Positions 10,680 to 50,058 are shown, counted from the first letter of the stretch. The stretch: 64,000 nucleotides of DNA from Psilocybe cubensis (GCA_017499595.2 CM039004.1:248001-312000); one strand, 5' to 3'. Notes: generated by a model from the letters alone, not told the origin. Numbers and translations: made by a program.

Positions 10680-11134
10680 CAGGACCCGGGAAGCTCCCCT
10701 AGAGGTCTGTCCGCTTTTTTGCCCGATTTTGACCCTCAAATCCGCATTGTTTTGGGCCTCAAATCCGCAAAAGCGGACAATGATATTTAGACCTTCCTAA
10801 TTGGGAAATTTTTTCTCCCTGCGGGGCATGAAAATTGATTACGGCCTCGGATAATGCCGGAGTCACGCTTTTAAATGTTTTACTGGCAAAATGCCATTGT
10901 TGGTGCCTAATTCGACCCAAAAAAGCTCTTTTCGGGTATGGTTTCCCATGGACGACGTGATGGAACTTTTTTGAAAAAATCTTGTCTAATTGGCCCTAAA
11001 ATCCGCAAAAAGCGGACAATGCTTGGGTCAAAATAGCCTCAAATCCGCCAAAAGTAGGACAATGATTTGGCCAAATTTTGGCCCTCAAATCCGCAAAAAG
11101 CGGACAGACCTCTAGGGGAGCTTCCCGGGTCCTG
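10680..11134. mobile_element. MITE-like non-autonomous element (455 bp)
   Basis: About 40-bp terminal inverted repeats CAGGACCCGGGAAGCTCCCCTAGAGGTCTGTCCGCTTTTT / AAAAAGCGGACAGACCTCTAGGGGAGCTTCCCGGGTCCTG; internal repeats of CCTCAAATCCGC(AAAAGCGGACA); no ORF; no TSD recognised. Confidence 0.85.
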
Positions 11135-17975: not shown

Positions 17976-19294
17976 CACGTCGGGATATTCAGAATATGCA
18001 GTTCCCACGAAGTGGGTAATCGAACGTTACAAAATATTTGAAATATAATAAGGTTTTAAATGATGCAACACGCTATAAATACAAGAGAAATACATATGTT
18101 AACTAAGATTGTAGTTACATGGCAACATCCAAATCTTTAAAGAATGTTGTGATAAATTTTATACATAAAGTACATTTCAAGAATGACTTGTATATTAAAT
18201 CTAAATCATCCTCTTTGAGACCAAGATATTTTATATCAAAGTTGTCCTTGAAAGGAACTTTGTATTTCAAATCCATTGTAACTTTTGAATGCCTTGTGAA
18301 TGTCGAAAAAAATTTAAAGTACAAAGGTCCTTTGTGGGCTCGCTTAGACATAGCATGTTTTGCACCATCTGTTGTTCATAGACATTTGAAATACAATACT
18401 CCCTTACATACTGCCACATATATTGAGTTTGTTACTACTTACAAAGGTCCTTTATATTTTAAATATACAGGAACCTAATATCAGTACTTTGTATGTTATA
18501 ACATATTTCAAATATGTTGTTCCAATATATTCTGCACCCGCTCATTGCCCATTGAGTGCCCAACAGTCGCCCACTATAACAGCCACTGGGTGCCCACCTA
18601 GATCTCTTTTGCGGGCATTGAACATGTTTACTGAATTGATGCCTGCAAAATGGTGTTCAATGCCAGATGTAGGTGGGCACGCAGTGGCTGTTATAGTGGG
18701 CAACTGTTGGGCACTCAATGGGCGATGAGCGGGCACAGAATATATTGGAACAACATATTTGAGATATGTTATAACATACAAAGTACTGATATTAGGTTCC
18801 TGTATATTTAAAATATAAAGGACCTTTGTAAGTAGTAACAAACTCAATATATGTGGCAGCATGTAAGGGAGTATTGTATTTCAAATGTCTATGAACAACA
18901 GATGGTGCAAAACATGCTATGTCTAAGCGAGCCCACAAAGGACCTTTGTACTTTAAATTTTTTTCGATATTCACGAGGCATTCAAAAGTTACAATGGATT
19001 TGAAATACAAAGTTCCTTTCAAGGACAACTTTGATATAAAATATCTTAGTCTCAAAGAGGATGATTCAGATTTAATATACAAGTCATTCTTGAAATGTAC
19101 TTTATGTATAAAATTTATCACAACATTCTTTAAAGATTTGGATGTTGCCATGTAACTACAATCTTAGTTAACATATGTATTTCTTTTGTATTTCAAGCGT
19201 GTTGCATCATTTAAAACCTTATTATATTTCAAATATTTTGTAACGTTCGATTACCCACTTCGTGGAAACTGCATATTCTGAATATCCCGATGTG
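17976..19294. mobile_element. 1319-bp foldback (palindromic) non-autonomous element, CACTA/CMC-like ends
   Basis: About 630-bp inverted arms (17976-18605 / 18665-19294) with few mismatches; termini CACGTCGGG...CCCGATGTG; 3-bp TSD TAC (17973-17975, 19295-19297); empty site ATAATACAATTTTGG in copy D near 54182. Confidence 0.92.
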
Positions 19295-19549
19295 TACACG
19301 TTTGGTTCTCAGCACGGGTTGTTCCGATTCGCATGCTTTTGGTGGCTCAACCGCTGTTGGACAACACAAGTCCCCCTTCAGACGCGTCGACATTCATTTT
19401 GAGGGGTGTTGTGAGGCCATACATGCTCATGGTAAGTCTTAGCACTCGTTCTCGTTGTACAAATTATGACCTTTCTATACAGACCAACGACAATGTTAGC
19501 CGCATCTTCAGGCCTTACAGTCATTTTTATTGATAATACCGTTGTATTG

Positions 19550-20380
19550 TAGTGCCAATTGTCATCAATAAACAACTGTTACTACCGTCCATTGACAAGC
19601 AGCACATATCTTTTGCAACTCTGCTGGTCTGCATACGGAAGCAGCGTAGACTGTCAATCAATTCCTGATGGACAATGTCTTAGGCCTACACAAGGAAGAG
19701 GCATTCGTTCAAGTTGTCCATCACCTCCTGATGGACAATTTTTAAATGACCTCCTGTAGGGTATCTTGTTTGTAAAAAAAAATTGTGGCATCGCCTGAAA
19801 TTGTCCATCATCCCACTATTACACGTGGCTTGTATAGAGCTTACTGTATGCAGTATGATTCCTTATTGTCAATCAATATTCTTCATGAAGCCAGGTATTG
19901 CCATTGTCAATCATCCTTTGGGTATTGAAATCTTTGTAGTTTGTCCATAGTCCTTATACACAATGTACTGCATCTTTGTCCATCAATGCTCAGTGAGGTT
20001 CAGTTTGTTTGATTATTCAACGCACAACATCAATTTGTCAATCACACCAGCAGCGTATAATGGTCCATGTTCCCTTCCTCTCTCCTGGCCTGTTGTCCAT
20101 CATTGGGCATATTGATGCCTAAATTTATTCTTCAGTGGTCTGTATAGCTTGTAGAACTGCAGTAAATCTTGTACATCACTCCACAGCACATTTTTGGCGC
20201 ATACCCCCGTCCATTCAATTGTCGATCAGGCTGTGCTATTTATATCTGACTTGTCAATAATTTAGCGCCGTTTAAAGCTGCAAGCGCTATTGTCAATCAT
20301 AACGGATTACCGGCTTGAACGCTACTTGTATCATTTGTCAATCAAGCGCTATTTATTACTTGTTCATCCTTGGATACATG
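19550..20380 (+). repeat. Left subterminal array of the TTGTC(C/A)ATC motif
   Basis: Copies near 19714, 19801, 19866, 19904, 19976, 20035, 20093, 20290, 20335 plus variants; two inverted copies near 19667 and 19730. Confidence 0.8.
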
Positions 20381-20971
20381 GCCTGCTTTCTATAAGAGCC
20401 CGCAGTCGAGGTTAGGGGATGCCTTCATCATCATGAATCTTCGCTCAAGCACCAGTATGTTTTTGATTTTTGTTCTCTCCGAGTGCATCCTAACCAGCAC
20501 GGTGCTTGAACTATAGGGAGGTTGTCTGCTAAACCAATTGGCATATTGATACCGCCTTTTCCAGATGATGGCATTCTGTACTTGAGTCACAGGCAAATAG
20601 AGTATGTATTTTCTGAGTTCTCCCCAACAGTTATATATCTCTCATGCATACGACTAGACAAATTGCTTTGATATGTATTCAAGAACAAATCAGGACTGGT
20701 CAGCTTAAAATCAACGACAAATTAGATTCAACAAGTCCGGATGAGGACACTCTGGGCCCGGCCAAAAGCTGTGAAACGTAGATTTGATTAGTAATTGGCA
20801 ATTGTTTGCTCTCATACAATGAACACATCAACGTTTTTGAATCCTTCTGAAATGTCCATCAGCAAGATAAAGCTTTTGTAACCAAGACAACCAACCTATC
20901 CTTATTCGATCTCAAGTTCAGACCCACATACTCTGTTACATTTCCGATCCATCCTTCAGAATTTCCAAGCC

Positions 20972-23900
20972 ATGGGACGACGACGCAAACAGAAGAGTTT
21001 TCAAGTAGATGAATATGAATCGCCAGACGAGAAAATGGTCAAAGAGGCATTGAAGGGTGACGTGCACACAGACTATCTAGGGAGAAAACAGCAAACAGTT
21101 CGTCTTTCTTTGCCTGTTGGAGTTGACCCCAAACCTTTCCCTCCATTGATGTCCAATGACTCCCCAACACCAACCCTTGATTGGGTGTTGCAAAATGAAA
21201 CTCCATTTCGTGTGTTTGATGGTGATATTGAAATACAAGAAATGGAGGACTGTGAGCTGGAAGCTTTGGGGATAATTAAATATTTTCGACGCACAGAAGT
21301 CCAATCCGAGCAATCAGATATGACTGAAAATTCTCAAAAAAAAAGGAAAACCCATTTGGTGAAGTTGATCCTACTTATCAGTATCACCTTTGTCTTTCAT
21401 ACTCCCCATGTGACGTGTTCTAACTTTCAGACGCATCCAATTCATTTCTGGACCCCACACATTGACTCCTACGTTGACGAGCTGCTACGATTAGAGGCTC
21501 CCGCTGGACCCTTGGACCGGTGCAGCAATACATCATGCCGTGCTTTATTAGATGGTGCTTCGTTTCGCTGTAGAGATTGCTGGGGTGGAGTTCTGTTGTG
21601 CACGGATTGTATAGTATCATTGCACAAGCAGAATCCGCTCCACAGAATAGAGGTTTTTCTATCTACATTTCGCAGTAATCTGGTTACTTACTCATTATTT
21701 ATCTCAGCATTGGACCGGTACATATTTCAGAAGAATATCTTCAAAATCGCTGGGTCTCCGCATTCAACTTGGCCATGGTAACGGTATCTGCGAGGTCCCC
21801 ATTCCTGCGTTCAATGATAGCTTTGTGATAATATCAGTGAATGGGATTCACGAGGTGGCTCTGGATTACTGTGGATGTACCATGGCGCAATCAAGACCCA
21901 CTCAACTTCTCCGTGCACGTCTATTCCCCTCTACAGTCAGCGACCCCAAAACAGCCGCGACCTTCGAAGTTCTCGAATACTTCCAAATGCTTTCATTCAA
22001 TACCAAGTCGTCTGGTTTTGAATTTTATCAAACATTATCAAGGTTGACGGATAACACAGGAACAAAATCACCTCCGGTAAGTTCTGTGTACCGATGATAA
22101 TTTACAATGGTGCTAATTCTTTTCAGGATCGCTACCCTGTCTTTATGCGTATTGTCAGAGAATGGAGGCATGTTAGGTTGCTTAAGCGCATGGGGCGTGG
22201 CCATGCAGAATCGGGTGTTCAAGGGACAAAAGAAGGCGAATGTGCTGTTTTGTGCCCCGCGTGCCCTCATCCGGGTATCAATATTCCCGAAGACTGGAAA
22301 GAGCGCCCAGAGTCTGAGCAGTGAGTGTTTATAGCTTTTGTCTATCCCTGACTTGAATTTACACTCTTATAGATGGATTTACTCGTTATTTGTTGGAATT
22401 GATGCAAATTTTCAACTTAAGAGAATGAATGTATCAAATGACAATCGAGATCCCCCTTTAAACCATGGCTATGCTTACATGGTTGAAGGTAGGAAGTTCA
22501 GAGAATACTTGAATATTTATGATTCGAAGATACCCGATGAGAAAAGTAATTGCAATAATCACGACGCCATCAAATCTGCAAGCATTCGAGGTGGCAAGGG
22601 AGCAGCTGCCAGTGGGTTAGGCACTGTTGAATGCAGTCGGCACGATATGAAGCGTCCGGTATCAGTTGGAGACCTTCAAAAGGGCGAAAGGTATGTACTT
22701 GGTCAACTGTAGAAGTTATCCATCAATCTCTTACCATCTTGTCACATTGTCCATCACTCTTGCTCACAATCACAAACTGCGGAATATTTAGATATGTTAA
22801 TATGGATTACTTTTTTCTGTCAAGCATAGCGTTCATCCTTCTCCATCGCTTGGTCGTATCTTATGACATTGCTTGCCAGTGGTGGTGTAATCTGATGAAA
22901 CGGTGTTTGGTATATCCATCAAACTCTCTTTCAACTCTAAATCTAGACATCGTGTACTTGGTACCAAAGTTTCACCTTCCAGCGCATATCCCAAAGTGTC
23001 AAACCTCCTTCTTGTTCAATTTGACTCCTCGAGTTGGCCGCACAGATGGCGAGTCTCCTGAACGTGGTTGGTCATCAGCAAATGGAGTTGCCAGTAGCAC
23101 GAAGGAGATGGGGCCTGGATCTCGGAGCGATACCCTGGACGACCATTTTGGGGATTATAACTGGCGCAAAATCATTGGAATAGGTAGACAACTCACTTTG
23201 TTTTTCTGAAGTATCTCATACTTCAATTTATAGCCGAAACATTTGTACGCAAGGCAAAAGAAGCCATTGCCGCTCGGGAGGAACACGTCGAGGCTTTCAT
23301 TGAATTTGATGCTGCTTTACCTGTAGAAGCTACTACGGAGTGGACCCGGCTATGTCAGGCGTGGGAGCAGGATCCTAGCCAGATAAACCCGTATGTCATC
23401 CCAAAAGCAAAGGGGAAAGGTGGTAAGTAATCAAAAACGGTTCTAGAGTTCTTTGATATTCAACCCCAATTGATAGCCACCGTAACCGAAAGGGACGTAC
23501 GACTAAAGCTTGCTGCTGAGGATGCGGCCTCTCTGGCCAGAGGAGACACCGTACAACTGCACGATGATATTAGCCCAAGCCTCCTTATATATCAGGGACT
23601 CCAATTTGAGGAACTTCAGTATGTTTTGGTTGTCTATGACGAGCCTAAGTCATTTACTAATTAATCTTCAAGGCACCGTATTGCACATGATAGCTCCAAA
23701 CTCGGACTTCATGCCACTAGTTTACAACAGTCAAAGGTATTGGAGCGGTCTAATTCCCTTAGACGTCGCATAGATGCATGGATATCTGTCCAGCATTTAT
23801 ACATGCCTGTTGTAGCTTCGCTCCGCTCGCGTGATGATGCGGGAGCTACAGATCCAGTTGCTGTACAGGATATGAAACTTTTTCTCCCCTCTTTCAACAC

Positions 23901-24723
23901 CAATACTCTTCAATGTTCACATTTGTTACTCAAATGTGAGTGGGAGTATCGATACGCACAAGCCGACGAAACTCCAACATCACTCCGGGCACTTTTGTTG
24001 CTGCGGTCGCACATGTACAAGTCAAAATACCGTCATTTTCGTGGCCAACGTATGCAAACTCGAAGTCAGAAGCTACTGTCAGATGTCCAAGATAAAATCA
24101 ATTATTTGGTGAAGACATATAGGAGGATATATACAGCATTGGAAAACCTGTCTCCGAGTCTCATCGAAACCTCGTGGCGCACTGTTTATCGCCTCCTTCT
24201 AGACGAAGACGTTGCTGGTCTGACATCAATGGACGATTTTGGTAGCGAGGGCAGGAAGCAATTGTCGTGGATTTGGAAAGTCCAAGGAACTGGTGCTGAC
24301 GCTGATGCATGCACCCAAGCAGGTATGCAGATCACAGGCTGCAAGAGTACAATCACTTAATTTTGCCGTCTTTTTTCAGCTTTACGTGTGGAGTGGTGTA
24401 AGTCGCGTGCAAGGGCTCATCGTTGGCAAGAGGAGTGTATTTTGCTTGCTGAAGAAATGTGCCGGGTCTTAGCCTATTTTGAATGGCAACAAAATCAATG
24501 GAGAAATCGCGCGGTGGCAGTCCTAGCGCAATACAATGCCAGTGCTGAGTCCGTCATACCAATGCAGCAGGAACTTTGCAACGGAAAAGTCGCTTACGCA
24601 CATCGACAACAATCAATCTGTGGAGATATTATGCGGCGTTGCCAGAACAAATGGCAGGGTCTTTCGCAGTCGCTAACACAGATGGAAGGGCGGAACGCAT
24701 GGGTTATGATAGAGTGTCACTAA
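20972..24723 (+). CDS. CxC2-KDZ (Kyakuja-Dileera-Zisupton) transposase, multi-exon, apparently open
   Basis: FRCRDC...CTDCIVSLH..PLHRIE-HWTGTYF...LGLRIQLGH, NGIHEVALDYCGC, PKTAATF, CAVLCPACPHPGIN, GIDANFQLKR, CNNHDA, CSRHD...DLQKGERYVNMDY, SYDIACQW, VPKFHLPAH, GRTDGESPERGW, EMGPGSRSDTLDDHFGDYNWRK, LSWIW, EWCKSRARAHRWQEE. These match the known CxC2 and KDZ motif series, with candidate D-D-E residues present. Confidence 0.95.
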
Positions 24724-24927
24724 TGTGTATAGTCTCTCTGCGCTAAGGCATTAATAATTAACAGTTCTGCAATGATTGAGAGTTCTCTGGACATAGTGCT
24801 CAGTATTCAAGTCCCAAGACAATTTATTTTTCAAGTTACAGAGGGACAACAACAAAAAATACGACATATAGAACATGCAAGAATAGATAAGTAAAATGAA
24901 AAACATGTTATAACGTTAAGGTGTTGA

Positions 24928-25859
24928 CTATATCTGGAGGGGCGCGCAGTCTGAAGGAGCGTCTTGGAGTGCAGCACCATCCGTTTCATCAGAGGCGGGG
25001 TCGGAAGCGGTGGTATCTGAGGTATACAAGTTTCGGAGGGGGGATGGAATGAGTTTTCCAGAACAATGCCTAAATGCGGGCTTGATATTTGGCAACTGCA
25101 ATCTGACAATCTTAGACAGGGCGTAAGTAAAGATTAAATCTCTGATAACAAGACATACCATTCTTTGCTGACTTTCTGTAGCAAATTCCGCCAAGAGCTG
25201 TGCATGTTTGAGCATCTCCGCGTCCTTCTGGAGCTGAGAGACCTTCTTACGTTGGGCCGCAAGGTAGCTTTGTGCTTGAACTTGGCGTTCTTTGACTTCC
25301 TCTTGTTGTTTAGCTTTCTCTTTCTCAGCATTCATTTCTTCTTCATGACGACGAAGGGTTTCTTTGCAAAAATCATTCCAGTGTATGGTGGCAGGCTCAC
25401 GCTAGACCCCAGCAAAACATAATTCGATAAAAATTCTCTATTGAAACTTTTAGAGAAACCAAGACAGATTAGAAAGTTACAAGATACGCACCCGACGAGT
25501 GGTTCGCCTGCGATCAGCGACAGCTTCCAGGTCATCCTTGTCTTTTGGTATCTCTGGCCACAGGGTGAACCACACAGCGTAGAAACGGTCGAGGAAAGCA
25601 TTCTTCTCCCCAAGCTTCCACGCTTGAAGGTAATAGGGACCAGCCTCCTCAGCGAGCTTGAATTGTGCGGCCGCAACAGCGCGTGATATCATCTTGCGAC
25701 GAGGTTGGATAGTGACAGGCTTCAAAAAACACGTTAGAAGTGAATCAATATTGTCGGTCGTAACTCGATACTTACTGGGTATGGGTGTAACACCCTAGAC
25801 TGAAGTGAGTCGTCCCTCTTCGTGGCTTTACTCATCTTGACATTGCGTGTTTTTGGCAT
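24928..25859 (-). CDS. Transposon cargo gene 2, hypothetical helical/coiled-coil protein; probable premature stop
   Basis: Exons MPKTRNVKMSK...HPYP / ...FLDRFYAVWFTLWPE...RRRTTRR / RIFIELCFAGV*REPATIHWNDFCKETLRRHEEEMNAEKEK...; in-frame TAG at 25402-25404 under this splice model. Confidence 0.55.
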
Positions 25860-26375
25860 TGTGAGGCAGTTGTGATGGAAGTAAACAGAAGGAGCAGCCA
25901 CTCGAGGTTGCATGGATTACAGTGTAAAGAGGCCCGTGTACAAGGTTCGTACTCCTCTTGAAGTCCATTTTGATGGACAATCGTGAAAGGAATGGCAGGG
26001 ATTGCCTGTGCTTCTTGAAGAAATATCTATTGGCACTTCAGCAGTTGATGGACAATTGTTGAAGGCCATAGATAAGTCAAGCGCACATGTACATCAACAA
26101 CATAGTTCGGGTATTCGGAAACCCGACCCGGTCTATACCTTTGTGGGAAGGTCGGCTGAAACATATAATAACATAGAAATGGCATAGACAATTACACAGA
26201 CTATGTATGGATTCTTTAAAGCCATATTTGGAATCAGAATAATAACCCCTTTGGAAAGATACCAATTTGAATACAGGTTTCTACACTGGCTAGTAAAAGT
26301 TAGAAGAATCCGTGGTTCAGCCACAACTCAACTATGTTTCATAGTGCAACGCATACTTTGCCTTATACCATCACT

Positions 26376-27062
26376 ATGGGTAGACCCAAAAAGTACAAAA
26401 CCGACGAAGAACTAAAAGCTGCAAATCGTGCCAAAGCCAAACGTCATTATTATAAGTAAGTTTACTCTGCCAGACAGATATACTACATCATATTGGTATT
26501 CAACTGTTTTCTTAACAATACAGAGAGCGAGGCAAGATTTTGATGGAAAGGCGTGAGGCATATCAAGAACACCACCCAAACCCGTACGTTGGATATATTC
26601 ATATAGAGCTATTAATCTACTAAAGACATCTACCTAAGCGCTGATATTCCAGAGAAAAGAGGAAGCGTTGTACGCCATACAGAATTACAGAAACCAGAAC
26701 CCCTCGGGGTGTGGATGGAACAATGTTGGAGACTCCAGCGACGATTTTGGCGCTTCATCGGAGAAGATCAGAAATCATTTTTGGATACCATATGCCAGAA
26801 GTTCATAGACACCAAAGACGATACGGAAATCGAAGAGCATCTTGCCACATTACACAACTTTGAGACGTCTATTCAGCGTTATAAGGGGAAGATTCTTCAG
26901 ATAGCAGGAGTAGGAAAGCCGCTCGTCCAGGTTCAAGAGATAGAGAGGCAGATTCATATGTTGATATGTTACTTACAGAACATACTATGCTTTACTCTCT
27001 TTGACCACTCTGGCTTCCAAAAAGTGTTTACTTTTTGCCAGTTTGACTATCAAAAGGTGTAA
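26376..27062 (+). CDS. Transposon cargo gene 3, small protein with basic N-terminus
   Basis: MGRPKKYKTDEELKAANRAKAKRHYYK, introns, then PEPLGVWMEQCW...ILQIAGVGK...LICYLQNILC...DYQKV*. Confidence 0.7.
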
Positions 27063-27240
27063 ATAGGACTCTTATATCACACCGTTTCACTTTGGATGCA
27101 AACACAATATTTTTTTAAAGCACACTATATACACATAAATGGTGATAGTCCCAGCACAACAAGCAAACAGATAGGAACGGCGAGATGATGGCAAATGGGA
27201 CAGCAAGGTGATAACAAAAGTTCAGAGCCAAAAAAAAACA

Positions 27241-28588
27241 CTACACCCCCTTGAGTTCAACATTTCCGGCGTCAAGAGCCTCTTGGAAGGCGGCATAAGC
27301 GGCACCCTCAGAATCGCACCTCCTGTAAACAGATCCCCTGACTCCAGTGACAAGGGGGGAGACATTATGCCTGTAACTGTATTTCAGCAAAAAAGAAAAG
27401 AAAACCCATCCGAGTTACATACCAGCCAGTAAACACGCCAACTCGCTTTCCTTTAGTCACAACATAGTAAGGCTCTGGGGTATGGGAATAAATTTGTGTT
27501 TGACAAGTAGGACAAAATCTTGCTGCATTGTGGGCAGCGGCAATGGGGGCGGCTGCAACGTGGGTGGCAGCGACGGGGGATGCGGCGACAGGGGCGGCTG
27601 CAACGTGGGCGGCTGCAACGTGGGCTGTTGCGACGGGGGCTGCTGCAACGGGGGCTGCTGCAACGGGGGCTGCTGCAACGGGGGCTGCTGCAACGGGGGC
27701 TGCTGCAACGGGGGCTGCTGCAACGGTGGCTGCTGCAACGGGGTTGGCTAAGAGAGTGGGGAAAGCCCCAGTAGCAGAGGCAGGTGCGACAGAGGAGGCC
27801 AATTCAAAAGCCACGTCAGATACCATGGCATCATCAGCTACGTCAGAGACGTAGGAAAGACTGCCTTCGTCGTCGCTGTCCTCAACAAAAATACAGACAT
27901 TAGCGCTGGTGAGAGGGGTACCATCTCCATGAGCTGCTTGGGTTGCAGCTCGAGCAGGGATTGAAACTAGATTAGGTAAACATAGATCAGGGATGTAGAG
28001 TAACGGGACTTGCCTGCGGGAATAGCGACCGGCTCTGTGAACAGTGCATCGATTACCGCATTGCGCTCAGCAGCACGGTTGTTGGAGGGATCTAAAAATT
28101 TAATTAGTCAAAGGGGAGCAACTATATCTGGTGATTGAACTTACGGATAGCTTTGGTCGGTCCTGGATCTGATCAAGTATATCAGTTAGAAATGAAAAGG
28201 GTATTTGTCAGCATAGATGCGCACAATTAGCTGGGGCGGTGTGGTCATCTGTAATGGTGAAGGGGAAAAAATGAGCCAAAGAAATAGGCGCGCATGAAGT
28301 CGACTTACCGATGAGCGTTGCGTTGTTGGGACGCGCATTTGAAAACTCGATGATCCCAAAACGACGAAGGCAGAAGACGATGGCCACAATGAGATTGCCC
28401 ATCGGGACATCGCCCACGCCGTTGTGAGTGACTATAGTATCAGTTAGTAACGTGGAATCACTTCTTGACAGGACATTACTGGGAAGTTCCAATGCTTCAA
28501 GAGCGGCGGAAATGGTGTTTATGTTCAGTTCCATCGTTTCTGCACTTTCCTCGCTGTGGTGGATGCTCTTGGATGGGGGAGGGGTCAT
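27241..28588 (-). CDS. Transposon cargo gene 4, RNase H1 N-terminal (Cauli_VI-like) domain protein with AAAPV repeats
   Basis: C-terminal PYYVVTKGKRVGVFTGW / ..MSPLVTGVRGSVYRRCDSEGAAYAAFQEALDAGNVELKGV* matches the YxVxxGrxxGvfxxW pattern; preceded by CPTC and an Ala/Pro/Val repeat; start MTPPPSKS at 28588. Confidence 0.75.
27533..27745 (-). repeat. 15-bp coding minisatellite (GCAGCAGCCCCCGTT; AAAPV), about 13 degenerate units
   Basis: Directly visible tandem GGGGGCTGCTGCAAC on the + strand. Confidence 0.95.
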
Positions 28589-28941
28589 TTTTCAGCTCAG
28601 TGAGTGAGAATCTCTGAAGGTTGAGTTGGGGTATATATGGGAACACTGTTTTTATTTGAATCGATGGACAACTGTACAGTAGCTCGGTAAACGGCTGAGA
28701 TGCCGAATTGGTAAGCCAAGCCACAGATCGGATGTAGATTTTGGTAGTCACGGGGCTGGGAGTCGGGAAGAAGGCGCTGAGGAAGGGAGCACTCATCCAG
28801 TCCAGAGGATTAATTGACATACGATGTAGGCGCCTCAAAAAATATATTTGGTATATGTTACTGATATATTCTTAGATTACTTATTCTTAGAACATATCAC
28901 CGGTACTTTTAAAATCTGCGATATTGTTTTGCCGTGCCAAG

Positions 28942-31900
28942 ATGCCGCCAGCGCCGTGGGCCGTGCCCGACCAAATCGAGTTCATGTCCACTCGATTGCC
29001 ACAATTCCAGGATGCTCAACGAAATAAAACTATAGCCGAGTTCTGGGTGAAGCTATATGCTGAATTCTTTTTAAGGTGGAAAGGGCCTGAGGATGAAGTT
29101 CAGCCCAATTCGGTTCAGCCAAAGAAACGTAAGAAAGACAATCAAAAGTTACCTCAAACATCGACGCCGATCGAGTTAGATCATGCTGCATGGATTAAGC
29201 TACGGAAGACGGTGAGTTCTATGTCATCTTTCTTTGATTTCATTCAATCAATGTCTAACGAATTCTATTTCTGACCAATTCCATGCCTAACCAATTCCAC
29301 GCCTAACTAATTCCACACCTAACCAATACCAGCAAATTGCTAATTGGTTTAATAACCGGGGAAAAGGGAGCGAGAACCGGCGGCAAGGCCCCGCCATTGT
29401 GATTGGATCTGCAGGGCCCAGTCAACGCGCCCTCTCCGAGCTGAATGTCTACTCAAAGCGGTACTACAACGAAAAAATACGTTCTCGTGTGGAAAAAGAG
29501 CTCAAAAAACACAGTGGCCCCGCCCATATCGCTCTTATCAACAAGTGTATCAGCGAGGCATGGGATATGGAGTCCAAAGATGTCAAGGAGGAGATTCGCG
29601 CAGAGACAAAGAGGTTGAAGGTGTTATTGAAGGAAGATCGCTCTGAAAATACTGAACAACCGACTCCTCAGGAATACGCCAAGTGTGTTTGTTTGGTTGC
29701 ATTGCTTCAATTATTGTTGAATTACTAACCAATTACATTATTTTAGAGCAATTATGGAGGCTCCAGGACAAATTACGAGCTTTCTTCAAGAAATGTACAA
29801 ACGCACTGGCTGGTGCCTGAGTGTGATAGCCGGCGGCCCTGATCCCTCCCGTCAAGGAAAGATTCGGACTATCAGTATTCATATGGGAAAGGACAAATTT
29901 GACCAATTTTACTTGTGCGCCTATCCAGACTTTCAGGAAAATGTGTTGGGTTCATATCGCAGTTATTTATACAATGTATACTGTGAGTACGCTATCTGCT
30001 TAAAGAATGAACAGACTCACAAGGCGTTATATATATAGCTCAGACTGACAGAGATAATCGCGCCCTCTCTGGGACAAAGCCTATAGCGAGCATGAAAATG
30101 GGTGAAGGTGGAATCATGGACGACTGCGAGGACGATTCCGGTGCCACCAGTCAAATGGAGGTTGAAGCACCAACAATTGAAGGGGAAGAAGATGGCGCAA
30201 AATTGACTGCGCCTGACGGCCAGAACGATATGCCAGCTGTAGCAACCGGGGCAACTATGTTCTCTGGAAGCATGACCAGAGAGTCTTGCCATGGTGCTGC
30301 ACCAACTCCCGATTCTAATTCCACCAGTCAAATGGAGGTTGAAGCACCGACAATTGTAGGGAAAGAAGATGGCGCAAAATTAACTGCTCCCGATGGCCAG
30401 AACAATACGCCAACTGTAGCGACTGAGGCAACTGTTTTCTCTGGAAGCATGACCACAGAGTCTTGCTATGGTACTGCACCAACTCCTGCAATGGATGCTC
30501 TACAAAATTCTGTCACAGGCCCAGACAAAAGCCTCCCGGTTTCTTTGCTGGGAAACCCCCTGAACGGTATGGAGATGGACGGAGAGAAGTTGTATGAAGA
30601 AGAAGATAGGGTACTTTCGTTTATGGAACTGTTGAAAGAGGATGGGGGTTACGACCCACAGAGAGACTCGATGCTTCAAATTTCGATGAACAATGGGTTC
30701 TTTTCAGACTATCAGTTTTGGGGCAACACGCAGGAGAACAGAACATTTCAAGTACCTACAACAGAAATGCCAATGGCCTGGGTTTCTGGTCACAAAGCTA
30801 ATGCTTCTTTGAACGTACAAGCACCCCTTGATGCCTTTCCAACCATCCCAATGTCAGCCAACAATCCAAATGGTCACGGCCCCTCTTTTTATCACCAGGA
30901 GGGCCCTATTACTCCGACAGCTGGATCTCAGCTTTTAGCCCAGCCGGCAGTGATGTGCGCACCATATATCGTTCAACCAGCAATGTTGCCAACAACATCC
31001 AACCAAAGTTATGCTCATTCGAACACTTCGTCGGCAATACCATTGCCTGCGCCGCAGCAACTGATGTCCTCAGCACTGATGAATCATCAACTGGGTCCCG
31101 AATCCCAAAATCCGCCATCTTTGAGATTTTCTGATGTCCCGGCGATGGGAATGCCACATGCCGGGTATCTGTTGGCGTCAATGGGTTATACCAACCCTGC
31201 TATATTCTCCCAGCTCGTCCAAGCTACTCCCAATCCATATGGGTCTGGCCACCACAACACTACCATACCCCAGATAGTCCAAGGACAAGCACATGTGGGT
31301 GTGAATGCTTCTGGCGCTGCACAGGAACCAAGAACATCAGCAGCAACTAGCCATCCAGAACTCACGGCCTCACTGCACCCTCCGCAAACACGCCCGTCTA
31401 CGTCGGAGAAGCAACAAGGAAATCCGGTAACGGGGGCGCATCCAGCATCCTGCGACACTGTGTCCAAGGAGAGCAATTGTACAACAGCAGCAGGGACAAT
31501 GATAGTCCCCAGCCCATCAGTTGCTCAGGCTTTGAAACCACCTATTTTGAATGTGATGAATGCTGATATGCAGCTTGACATTGTTGATGATGGTGGACGC
31601 CGAGCTCGAAAAGCAGCAACATCAAGGAATGTCCCGATGCAGCAAATGTGGAGAGCAGCGGCACTGGAGCACCTTATGATGCCTGAGATTGATACTGAGA
31701 AATGGAAATTGTGTGTAAAGGCTTGGGTTGCATTTGAGGATTCGCAATGCGACGCCATTGAAACAAGTTTGGTAAGAGGTTTTAGAGCTGTAACAGAATC
31801 TTGACGCTTACCGCAATACCAGCTCCGATTCCCCGCTGCAACAAGGCCAGTGGCCCTGACCAAATGGTTATCAACTCGTAAGTATGGAAATGCTCCTGAT

Positions 31901-32248
31901 GTTGGAGTCAAATTTGGGGACGAGTGGGTAACCTGGTGGAACAACAGTCAGCCTAAATGGAGGCAGAGCTCGGAGGCTGGAAAGCTGCCACAATGCCTGT
32001 CTGTTGCTGGCGGGAAAGATAGCATCAATGTGTTGAAGAAAGGAGGTCCAAACGGCTTGGTAACGGTGATGATTGGGTTGAGGTGGTGGGCGAAACATCG
32101 ACACTCCGACCCAAGATGGGAGGAAGCCGTTGAAGACATCCTTGCTGTATTCCAAGCATTCCAAGAAGTCGCTAAAGTGACCAAAAAGCGCAAGGGGAAT
32201 GAGCAAAACATCAAGGTGAAGTCAAATGTCAAGAGGAAGAAGACATGA
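28942..32248 (+). CDS. Transposon cargo gene 5, large protein with putative homeodomain/HMG-like N-terminal region, low-complexity middle and Trp-rich C-terminal domain
   Basis: MPPAPWA...FFLRWK...QIANWFNNRG; YSKRYYNEKI...AWDMESKDVKEEI; RTGWCLSVIAGGPDP; C-terminal WVTWWNNSQPKWR...KGGPNGLVTVMIGLRWW...WEEAVED; 177-bp internal duplication at 30144/30321. Domain names are inferred from motifs. Confidence 0.75.
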
Positions 32249-32399
32249 ATACAATGTGGCTCTCTTTGTCCGTTCCCACGCAACCGATCTAATGTTTTTT
32301 GCGCAGTTCTTTTGAACAAAAGATAAGTTTCTTGATCGTTGATCTACTCGATACAATATATTTTCTTGGAATAAAATGCAATATAGAATTGATACACAT

Positions 32400-32980
32400 G
32401 TGCGATGGACAATCCAGTTGTGATCAATAAAGTTCAATGGGTAAATTGGCTGATTCAGAGGTCCTGGCGATTGAGCGGTTTGATTGACAAAGAATAGAGT
32501 GGATGAAAGATAATTAGTAATCTGGTGAATATCTGTGGTAGATGGACAAACGGAGAGGGAGTGCTGCTGGGTATTGGGCAGCGCTATAAGCTCGCTAGGT
32601 CTCTTGTTGATGGATGAATGTCCTTGGAAACGGATGAGCGGGATAGATGGACAATGTGCACGTATTTTATGCTGAACCAAACCGCACGCTCTTGCAATGA
32701 TTGATAAAAGGTACGACGGATGATAATACCGACGTTCACCAGACATTGACAAAATGTAAGCGGATGAATGAGAATGGATCGACAACCGCACTATGTATCG
32801 ATGACCCACCATAGGTCATAGAAATGATGGACAACCTCATGATAATTGCACATGGGTCATTTATCCATAAATCCACTGTAGAGGAACGGTAAATATGGCG
32901 GGCATGATGGACGAGTTTACAGGAGGATGGATCTATGGACAACGTAATGGAAATGGATAACCCAAGAGGTATGGACAAGA
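32400..32980 (-). repeat. Right subterminal array of the same 9-bp motif in opposite orientation (GAT(G/T)GACAA)
   Basis: Copies near 32404, 32482, 32541, 32646, 32777, 32827, 32933, 32970 (some with one mismatch). Confidence 0.8.
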
Positions 32981-34339
32981 AGGATACGAGAAGGATTGTC
33001 TTTCGACAGAGCGGCTACCATCGACAAATAATATGAGTATGAAAAATGTCGCTGGGGCAGGCATGATAGTAAGGCCTGTAGTATGGTTGGTGGGCATCGA
33101 CAATCTCACTGTGCATAAACAATGCCACAGGCCTTGCTAGGTATGCGAGTTATAGATGAGGATTGTCACTGTACTGCAATGGTTTATACATTATCACGGT
33201 TGTATCTGGTGGCATCTTCCATGTCCAGCAACATACACACCTCACTGGAAAGTTTTGATTAAGCCACCTGGTTGCATTGTCACCGAGAATCCCACCACTC
33301 GCTCTCGTGCTTCACCATACAGACCAGCGACACTGATCGAAGCTTATTGGTAGTTTCATTGCTTGTTTACCTTTCCATGACACGTCGCTTTTCACTATCT
33401 AACAGGGCCCCTCACCTCTTATTGGACCATCGACGAATTGGAAGGCTCGGTGCAGTTACAAATGCGCTAACATTCAGACTTCCAGACATGGATCAAAACG
33501 GCCCTTACATCCACGGTGTGTTTGGCTCTGGGACACGATGCGCTTGCACTGGAAACCACAAAAAAAGCAGTTGGCCGAACCGCGTACATCCGATGCCAAA
33601 TGTTCGGACCAAGAGGGCTGGTGGTATGAAGTTGAAATGGCGCGTAAATGAATGGGTAAGTGAGTTCACCATTGCCTTGGGTCTGCTTATCTCCGGGACG
33701 CAACACGCTGGCTCTGGAGACTACGAAGTGGGATTAGATGACTTACAAGCCAGGGGATCGCTGAGGGATGTGCAAAGCAATGAAGGAGAACCCTTGAGAA
33801 GATGAATGCATGGGTAGGGAGTGAGGGTGAGTAGAGTGAGTTAAACGAGGCCTCTTTTTACGTTTTGTGGAAAGCTCGCTGTACGCAATGTCTGTTACAT
33901 CTATCCCTCCAATGTCCACCAAAACTCTCTGAGAGATACCAATCGACTCGGCTGTATGTGTACTTGGTGAGTTGTGTCTCGAGTCGGGACGGTGCGGGAT
34001 CCTTGACTTTCAGTCTATGTTAGGCTAAAACCCGGGCCTTCTGAATAATCTGGGATATTTCGATGTACGTGGTGAGTGCTCTAGGTTCCTTGAATTAACG
34101 AGTCTGTGAATTAGGGTATTCCCAGACTTGGAAAGGCAGTATGTACCTCAATAGAATGATTTGAAGGTTTGTTTGCGCTAAAATCACGTATTTATATTTC
34201 TTTTTTAGGCAATTTCATGAAAACAGCATGTATTACAATACAATTTTAAGTGCGTTCAGTGAAAAGTACATGTGCGTAGTTTTCCATCTAGAAGCACTCC
34301 GAATTAGAAATTCCCCAGCCGATGCTCCACGAATCCTTC

Positions 34340-37772: not shown

Positions 37773-37986
37773 CACTGCTGGCGCTGATACATATTTGATA
37801 GAAAAATATGTATCGGTAATTATGTTTCCTATTGGTTTTTGACGTATTTTACTGGAATATAGGCTTCGGGCTTCCCTAATTGGGTAACCCCGGACTCTAT
37901 ATACGAGAAAAATATGTCAAAAACCAACAGGAAACATAATTACCAATACATATTTTTCTATCAAATATGTATCAGCGCCAGCAGTG
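37773..37986. mobile_element. 214-bp CACTA-type MITE
   Basis: About 78-bp TIRs starting CACTGCTGGCGCTGATACATATTTGATAG and ending ...CAGCGCCAGCAGTG; 3-bp TSD TTG (37770-37772, 37987-37989). Confidence 0.92.
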
Positions 37987-48600: not shown

Positions 48601-50058
48601 AAGACTAGTACATGATCATCCTCACAAGAACCAGCTACAGACTGTGTTCTTACCCACTCGAAGATACTAAAATCTTATTGTACAATGTCATTCTATATCA
48701 CTGTGCCTACGAAAAGTACAGAATGCAGAAAGTGTACCACAATACAACTCCACAGGCTAGGTCACTCCGTCTTATCTGATTTCTCGGGATGACACGGGTA
48801 TCAGGTGTCAGACGGTGCTTATAAGAACGTCATACAGAGGATATTCGTTCCAGCCACACACTTTTGTGCATAACCCGCCAGCATATAACAGCTATGTCAA
48901 CAGCTTTACGGTTTGTTTAAACATAGATTGGATGTCGTCATTGGATTCACGTATGTGCGTCTATTAAATATTTTGAACGGGGCCTCTTCACGTAGTCACA
49001 AAATGCTACTACACACACATCCACTCCATTGGCACCGGGATATCCAGATCCTATCGGTTTTTTTACAAGGTTCTCAATCTTCCGATGTATCCATGATGTT
49101 CAACAATGCACATTCACGCCAGACAATCGTTGACTTTATTTTCACCGCCACACAACGCCCTCTTTGCTGTTAATACCAGACATGACTCCGTTTGACCCGT
49201 CCACCCGCTATGTTTTAGGCGTTGTGACGCCCCAGGGAGATCTCGTCGGTCAAAGCCTCTGTTCGCATGAGGAAGTGCGAGACCCGACAGCCTTGTCTGA
49301 ATGTGTGCAATGCGGCCTATCACAATATTTTCGAGTCGGCCGGCATATCTAGCCGAAGGCCGTTCTGACTGTACTTACATAATAGACTTTTGGTTCTCAG
49401 CACGGGTTATTCCGATTCGGATGCTTTTGGTGGCTCGACCGCCGCTGTCCTGCTTCAGACGCGTCAACATTCATTTTGAGCGATGTTGTGAAGCTATAAG
49501 TGCTCATGGTAAGTCTTAGCATTCGTTATCGTAGTACAAATTATGACCTTTCTATTCAGACTGACAACAATGCAAATACAACGTTAGCCGCATCCTCCAT
49601 GGCCAGCAACACACTCATCTCAGTGGAACGTTTCGATTGAGGCTCCTGATTGCATAGTCGCCATGAATCTCACCACTCGTATTCATGCTTCACCGTGCAT
49701 ACCAACGATAGTGAAAGAAGCTGATTGGTAGTTTCATTACTTATTTACCGTTCCATGACACGCCGTATTTCACTATCTAACATGAAACAAGGCCCCTCAC
49801 CTCTTATTGGACCATCGACGAATTGGAAGGCTCGGTGCCGTTGCAAATGTGTTAACATTCAGATGAGCAGACGAGGATCAAGACGGCCCTTTCACGTCAG
49901 CATGGTTTGTTTGCCACAATACATGTGCGTAGTTTTCCATCTAGATGAACTATGAACTAGGAATCTCCAGCCGATGCTCCCCGAGTCCTTCTCAATTCAA
50001 GCATTGGGAATAGTATTGGTTTGAAAACTGCAATGTTCCCTGTGCGCAACATGTGGAT
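45621..50058. repeat. Duplicated unit copy C (uninterrupted)
   Basis: Collinear with copy A once its two insertions are removed. Confidence 0.9.
46507..48051 (-). CDS. Orphan spliced gene, copy C (most complete exon set)
   Basis: MAQFQEESLVIPSNTFLPGYISSMFESE...YPYTEEELL...ESGWDILPQDS...extra exon YGTEEAYATANEGQ...VSVTRERKRRKDRGFRFVNLAAS*; open under GT-AG splicing, including a 12-nt micro-exon. Confidence 0.72.

Follow-up and report, generated by a model that had tools for sequence, protein, structure and literature searches.

Genes that lie beside a transposase raise the question of whether they belong to the transposon and, if so, what they do for it. In Psilocybe cubensis this question is posed by a KDZ transposase gene and four companion genes, here called A, B, C and D, in a window of 64,000 nucleotides (GCA_017499595.2 CM039004.1:248001-312000), by which we mean the whole stretch of DNA analysed; positions are counted from its first letter. 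The window is fungal, two of its translations being identical to the NCBI Psilocybe cubensis proteins JR316_0007623 and JR316_0007624. The locus is apparently a low-copy, autonomous Kyakuja-type KDZ DNA transposon of P. cubensis without a TET/JBP gene; it is a fairly ordinary member of a known, poorly studied transposon class, and its companion genes are probably accessory genes of its own, with the product of gene D as the candidate for recognition of the element's ends.

The transposon occupies positions 19509-33211 on the + strand (13,703 bp, starting with CAGGCC and ending with CTGGTG, without terminal inverted repeats) and lies between two copies of GCATCTT (19502-19508 and 33212-33218), which were read by eye against a paralogous empty site within the window. 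Self-comparison of the window by BLAST places 19295-19495 and 33212-33506 side by side in the paralogous segment 49383-49891, and base-by-base reading of the empty site at ~49560-49600 finds GCATCCT once, against GCATCTT on both sides of the element. The joint 19501->33212 is bridged by contigs in three DNA runs, with 8 letters common to both sides; the target duplication is 7 bp, or may be read as 8 bp from the shared letters of the joint. The host DNA at this locus consists of tandem repeats of one segment, found at 14.5-17.9, 35.1-37.0, 45.8-50.0 and 51.1-54.0 kb with a likeness of 80-95% between copies, and the transposon sits within one of them; the bridging contigs may therefore be paralogues and not an empty allele. 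End-to-end comparison of the element found no pairing of the two termini beyond CA/TG. According to the main text of Kojima 2025 (PMC12730594), Kyakuja elements of the KDZ class lack inverted repeats, have the termini 5'-CA..TG-3' and duplicate 7 bp of their target, and we call the element Kyakuja-type because it matches this description; the class is assigned from domains, duplication and termini. A first-pass annotation had placed the genes inside a transposon and had counted four of them besides the transposase: the empty site shows the insertion of 19509-33211, a diverged copy in another read run (X7, below) begins at the same position 19509, and all four genes were found where they had been placed.

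The transposase gene (20972-24723, + strand) follows in our model an intact, stop-free path of nine exons, joined across eight GT-AG introns, to a protein of about 1072 aa. Its N-terminal zinc-chelating cluster is recognized by Pfam as CxC2 (PF18803, E 2.7e-41), and its KDZ domain (PF18758) is found on two exons (E 8e-19 and 1.8e-37). Pieces of the KDZ catalytic core (21997-23107), and of that part only, are also matched with many differences by deeper contigs in the read runs X1 and X10; the species therefore contains other KDZ families, even in a strain without this element. Downstream of the transposase, the companions form two divergent pairs, A with B and C with D, and the five genes and two subterminal regions fill the element.

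Gene D, the largest of the four companions, runs from 28942 to 32248 on the + strand. Our model of about 1004 aa has the exons 28942-29211, 29333-29682, 29747-29982, 30039-31771 and 31823-32248, and the gene corresponds to JR316_0007624 (P0001), for which the NCBI model has 988 aa. An exhaustive HMMER search assigned 958 clusters to the D family at E <= 0.001, of which 223 also pass E <= 1e-10; conservation is concentrated in two modules, at residues 1-265 and about 790-960. Names were found for 19 of the 20 relatives looked up, all 19 being Agaricomycete 'hypothetical' or 'uncharacterized' proteins, from Agaricales, Polyporales, Atheliales, Boletales and Amylocorticiales. For a further P. cubensis paralogue (P0003), six identical sequences are recorded, spread over five contigs, which is the signature of a repeat. 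No Pfam family was found on D, on its counterpart P0002 in the second copy of the element or on ten D relatives.

The AlphaFold2 model of D, computed with 150 relatives in the alignment, is helical except for one beta hairpin, with pLDDT (predicted local distance difference test) above 90 at residues 9-260 and 800-970 and disorder at 279-799. The protein has in order what looks like a homeodomain helix, a fold similar to an HMG box, a long linker without order and, at the C-terminus, a helical domain that is conserved in the family. When the model was searched against 48,161 solved chains, HMG boxes headed the matches, at residues ~118-197, and made up 21 of the 50 listed, at Z 5.0-7.3, the tool's middling class; the best of them had root-mean-square deviations (rmsd) of 2.2-3.2 over 62-75 residues, led by CIC (Z 7.3, rmsd 2.6 over 73 residues) and followed by Abf2p, LEF1, SOX, TFAM and others. 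Foldseek agreed weakly with an HMG box (SOX18, probability 0.75; Sox11, 0.69), and the Pfam HMG_box profile scored 15.2 bits on exon 2, below its gathering cut-off of 25.4 (E 0.029; E 0.45 on P0002). The homeodomain signal comes from the N-terminal module as well: when the D-family profile was compared with the sequences of the Protein Data Bank, 24 of the 31 rows were homeodomains (best E 0.005), and the family's 'nWFnNr' (in profile residues ~64-107) aligned on the homeodomain recognition helix with its WFxNR, R53 not being kept. Structural comparison gave matches of Z ~5 to WUS, STENOFOLIA, DUX4 and ZHX1 amid rows of unrelated helical proteins. Taken together these signals agree, each being below threshold alone, and support a D protein that is HMG-like and homeodomain-like, which is what had been guessed at first sight. 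The C-terminal domain was predicted well when folded alone (pLDDT 87.5); Foldseek returned no relatives of its fold at E <= 0.001, and the best matches of the widest search, at Z 5.6, were designed helical bundles, none of them meaningful. Within the stretch of the gene that encodes the disordered linker there is a 166-nt tandem duplication (30144-30309 and 30321-30486, 89% alike), a place at which P0002 differs.

The other three companions are smaller. Gene A (24928-25692, - strand; 158-224 aa in our splice model, depending on the choice of the last splice) encodes an N-terminal module in common with D, and the remainder of the protein is helical and charged, with coiled-coil character. Among 1,723 open reading frames (ORFs) of the window, the D-family profile matches exon 1 of A at E 0.0047, and in a phmmer comparison with a set of 153 proteins the same exon matched three D-family members at E 8.6e-07 (P0134), 6e-4 and 3e-3; a search of the Atlas matched it only to Basidiomycota clusters without names, which is a lead only. 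By sequence, A is a short relative of the N-terminus of D. Gene B (26376-27062, + strand) has an intact splice path to 172 aa in our model and begins MGRPKKYKTDEELKAANRAKAKRHYYK, so that the small protein with a basic MGRPKKY start that had been predicted here does begin in this way. No relatives of B came out of a word-based search restricted to proteins of 67-216 aa, and phmmer with both available B sequences found no B fused to D among the same 153 proteins.

Gene C (27241-28588, - strand) encodes the 354-aa protein P0153 (JR316_0007623, Psilocybe cubensis, NCBI), its exons having been mapped by tblastn. Most of the protein is of low complexity, and a 15-nt tandem repeat (27507-27791, - strand; repeat family D1) encodes AAPVA repeats within it. 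At its C-terminus is an RNase H1 N-terminal (hybrid-binding, Cauli_VI) domain, which the first-pass annotation had named and which now stands above the Pfam cut-off (PF01693, 33.8 bits against 21, E 4e-08, residues 296-338 of P0153). The raw reading frame showed only a trace of the domain because the intron 27371-27422 splits it. By fold, two of the four companion genes are DNA- or RNA-binding.

Do these genes travel with the element? Copy number and synteny in P. cubensis are taken from one read-run comparison, in which contigs were compared with the window at 80% likeness. Six runs contain 0.83-0.98 of the words of the stretch, whereas two runs of the same species label, X7 and X10, contain next to none; X11, a run presumed to be RNA, gave no contig on the element. 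In X1 the element is covered by two contigs, 100% identical and at single-copy depth; X10 has almost nothing on the element; and X7 has a different copy, 11-15% diverged, with an even depth of 21-26 over all parts. The largest contig of this copy (12,062 nt) aligns to 19509-24737, 25155-25728 and 25933-27559 and continues beyond 19509 into 3,955 nt of unlike DNA, and two more contigs align to 28616-30206 and 31589-33118. Since the alignment begins at 19509 and the DNA beyond is unlike, this is a second copy, roughly 89% identical, at another locus of another strain and with the same first base; represented in it are the transposase, A, B, C at its 3' part (the hybrid-binding end), D and the right subterminal region. 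The D protein of the second copy is P0002 (JR316_0010230, on another contig), with an open frame of 988 aa; its identity with the window's D is ~89-90% over the N-terminal exons but falls to 62% over the remainder. Differences between the copies carry no bias of the kind left by repeat-induced point mutation: in X7, G>A and C>T together number 488, and the reverse changes A>G and T>C number 468. One contig each in X7 and X10 joins 23312 to 29330, that is, the transposase to the first intron of D, skipping 6,017 bp with A, B and C; it is possibly an internally deleted derivative or a chance join of related repeats, the shorter side being 32 letters.

The linkage extends beyond the species. A scan of metagenome contigs found one short contig (L001, 2.8 kb) with a D relative of 33% identity, and directly upstream of it, on the same strand, a B homologue. 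Its sequence begins MGRHRIYNTQEEKQAANRFKSKKYYEK, with the N-terminal motif of the window's B; the two also share the position of an intron and 26% identity over 121 aa (E 7e-20). B and D are thus a conserved pair. The second diverged copy, the size of the D family, the B-D linkage and the homology of A to D together support the view that the companions belong to the element and are not captured metabolic host genes, as had earlier been suggested for three of the four.

These data also bear on whether the insertion is a composite, in which some genes, for example the C-D pair, came with a nested second element or were host genes trapped between two elements. Such an origin could be suspected because in the second copy a single contig (X7 record 16) joins the transposase to A, B and the 3' part of C, with D on separate contigs, and because the empty site is a paralogue and not an allele. 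However, the depth of the X7 copy is even over all its parts, self-comparison of the window revealed neither duplicated parts within the element nor a further pair of ends, the D-family profile, run as a hidden Markov model over the ORFs of the window, found no other member, and the motif array found at the left end recurs, in the opposite orientation, at the right end beyond D. A composite is accordingly very improbable.

This motif is TGATKGACAA. The window contains 16 exact sites, all within the element, against 0.58 expected; allowing up to one mismatch raises the number to 42 (13.75 expected), of which 29 are within the element. Most of these 29 form two subterminal arrays, a left one at 19651-20861 (annotated on the - strand; 16 sites at up to one mismatch, 14 of 16 on the - strand) and a right one at 32403-32914 (+ strand; 7 sites, all 7 on the + strand). 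The left array being mostly on the - strand and the right array wholly on the + strand, the two face each other as inverted repeats would. Motif search also located two exact sites, TGATGGACAA, in the divergent promoter region of A and B (25971-26055, + strand) and a one-mismatch copy in that of C and D (28662-28671, + strand); three more in-element sites lie elsewhere. The metagenome contig has one exact reverse complement of the motif, TTGTCAATCA, inside its B gene (L001 601-610; ~0.01 expected in 2.8 kb). We take TGATKGACAA to resemble a PBX-MEIS composite homeodomain site.

Together, the insertion, the companions and the arrays suggest a reading to which we give a probability of about 0.5: that A to D serve the element as accessory proteins of its own and that D is an array-binding factor that recognizes the ends. 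Since inverted terminal repeats are lacking, the ends must be marked in some other way, and the oppositely oriented TGATKGACAA arrays could do this. Among the element's products D is the best candidate for binding them, because it has a homeodomain-like helix and an HMG-like bending domain, is found lineage-wide and keeps an open frame in both copies. It would read and bend the arrays through these homeodomain-like and HMG-box-like parts and help the transposase to assemble on both ends, a role that would resemble those of TnpA in En/Spm and of the Myb-like protein in PIF/Harbinger. Through the motif sites in both divergent promoters D would control the genes of the element as well; A, as a relative of the D N-terminus, and B, through its conserved linkage with D, would be partners or regulators of D; and C, with its predicted domain for binding RNA:DNA hybrids or double-stranded RNA, would be a lineage-specific addition.

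A simpler division of labour would have the transposase alone recognize the motif through its CxC2 cluster, leaving A to D as selfish or neutral passengers with roles outside transposition, for example as regulators of host genes. The zinc motifs of the transposase, and an insert in it, have reportedly been predicted to act in stabilization and target recognition, which would suit such a division. The extra ORFs of Cryptococcus KDZ elements, which are apparently unrelated and without predicted domains in the relevant passages of PMC11343200, also suggest that accessory content varies. Several observations speak against passengers: D belongs to a very large family and has an open frame in two diverged copies, the B-D linkage persists at 26-33% protein identity, A is related to D, and the motif is found in the promoters of the accessory genes too. 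We regard passenger status for all four genes as unlikely.

Several observations weigh against an end-recognition role for D within a four-gene set of accessory proteins. The HMG and homeodomain signals of D are singly below threshold (15.2 bits against 25.4, Z below 8, E 0.005); the CxC2 zinc cluster of the transposase could itself bind the motif, and the pairing of D with the motif is one that we infer. On the metagenome contig C is absent between B and D, where a gap of ~580 bp leaves no room for it, so that fewer than four genes may make up the conserved unit, with C apparently added later and in this lineage. The divergence of the X7 copy is similar in coding (11-13%) and non-coding DNA (13%), and purifying selection is therefore read only from the preserved frame of D and from its better-kept end domains.

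The absence of a TET/JBP gene invites a different role for the companions. No Tet_JBP or other dioxygenase domain was found by Pfam in nine exon translations and 29 stop-to-stop ORFs, mostly of at least 80 aa, the 29 being taken from 61 ORFs of at least 70 aa in the element. Likewise, P0001, P0002 and P0153 had no Tet_JBP match, and no dioxygenase fold was among the structural matches listed for D. In the main text of Kojima 2025 (PMC12730594), very divergent PE-type dioxygenases are described, and these can evade Pfam and might do so here; the model of D, however, is helical apart from its one hairpin, and the element has no space left for a further large gene. At the level of Pfam, for the 29 ORFs and nine exon translations, the first impression that the locus has no 2OG-Fe dioxygenase holds. 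The element is also poor in CpG: the observed/expected ratio is 0.65-0.83 in four 3-kb windows inside it and 0.82-1.09 in 14 outside (one-sided Mann-Whitney p 0.0007), or 0.74 for the element as a whole against 0.92-0.95 for its flanks, with an excess of TpG/CpA. This depletion fits past cytosine methylation and argues against effective escape from it.

Given that transposon-borne TET/JBP genes are argued to serve escape from methylation (Kojima 2025, PMC12730594, main text), A to D might be an anti-silencing kit in place of TET/JBP, in which C sequesters double-stranded RNA or RNA:DNA hybrids with its RNase H1-type domain and so blunts RNA interference, and D, by way of its HMG-like domain, keeps the chromatin of the element open. 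The Cauli_VI domain of C, above its Pfam cut-off, would fit such a kit, as would the lack of TET/JBP and a CpG poverty consistent with past methylation. However, the same depletion suggests that silencing was not avoided, C lies outside the conserved B-D pair on the metagenome contig, and sequence-specific arrays at the ends are left unexplained, so that we consider the kit doubtful as an account of the module. The silencing suppressor P6 of caulimoviruses has the same domain as C, a point in favour of the kit. A fuller version of the end-recognition reading would give this part of the argument to C alone and would extend to Kyakuja transposons in general: lacking inverted terminal repeats, they would define their ends by opposed arrays of the PBX-MEIS-like 10-bp site, which D, as an element-encoded protein of a large Agaricomycete family, would read; A and B would join D in a dedicated complex for end recognition and self-regulation, and C would have been added to counter silencing at the level of RNA, in place of TET/JBP. 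This scheme is, in our judgement, somewhat less probable still than either the kit or the passengers.

Arrays of short motifs at both ends, bound by a second protein that the element itself encodes, TnpA, are known from En/Spm. This CACTA element is similar to the Kyakuja-type element in its large size, in the subterminal motif arrays at both of its ends and in having a second element protein, and differs in its unrelated transposase class, in its CACTA inverted repeats and in the production of TnpA and TnpD from one transcript; D has no likeness to TnpA in sequence, as far as the Pfam searches of D and its ten relatives go, which found no family. KDZ elements are said to encode further proteins, including one with a divergent HMG domain. 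PIF/Harbinger elements combine a transposase with a separate helix-turn-helix DNA-binding protein (Myb/SANT), as outlined in the main text of PMC12730594; they differ in transposase and in DNA-binding fold and have one accessory gene only.

The nearest described relatives in that source are Kyakuja-1_LB and Kyakuja-2_LB (PMC12730594), which as given there are alike in the KDZ domain with its CxC cluster, the 7-bp duplication, the CA..TG ends without terminal inverted repeats and the Agaricomycete host. Compared with these families, the P. cubensis element lacks TET/JBP and has an RNase H1 N-terminal-domain gene and subterminal TGATKGACAA arrays. The word 'subterminal' is absent from the main text of that paper, its supplementary consensus sequences aside, and the family found here may already stand among its consensus sequences or in its family tables. 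The Cryptococcus elements KDZ1-3 and KDZx1, in the passages of PMC11343200 that describe them, are KDZ elements of 6.4-10.9 kb, shown to be mobile and equipped with extra ORFs without predicted domains; they differ in having an 8-bp duplication, KDZ1 in having 236-bp inverted repeats and KDZx1 in being of the Zisupton type with CxC4 and SWIM. In Pleurotus ostreatus, the 10.7-kb insert of helpo1.3 (capD, capE, capF) is described in part of PMC4289320 as encoding a large proline-rich protein, a Cauli_VI protein and a nuclease of RNase H fold, named there as a putative transposase; likened by description only, it may be the same kind of element, with the difference that it was reported there as Helitron-captured genes flanked by inverted repeats. 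KDZ elements with extra genes are thus already known. What is new is a delimited, TET-less Kyakuja copy from P. cubensis, the domain make-up of D, the relations of A with D and of B with D, the hybrid-binding gene and the subterminal arrays.

The host DNA around the element contains several other structures. A 1,319-bp near-perfect palindrome at 17976-19294 has two 630-nt arms, 97% complementary and 59 nt apart, with 34% G+C and zero TGATKGACAA sites; since the paralogous segment at 49384 lacks it, it is a separate, foldback-type insertion 214 bp to the left of the KDZ element. Also outside the element are a palindrome at 37773-37986, with 107-nt arms and no spacer, and a perfect 40-nt inverted pair at 10680-11134, 375 nt apart.

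The general picture of transposon biology is unchanged by this finding. KDZ elements are abundant in mushrooms and their movement has been shown in Cryptococcus; the P. cubensis copy is clean, fully delimited and polymorphic between strains, and it brings together a candidate array of binding sites and a candidate DNA-binding partner. The model of D also offers a first view of the structure of a family of Agaricomycete 'hypothetical proteins' that is very large, a family that in P. cubensis is found on a transposon in two copies and that has one paralogue present as six identical sequences.

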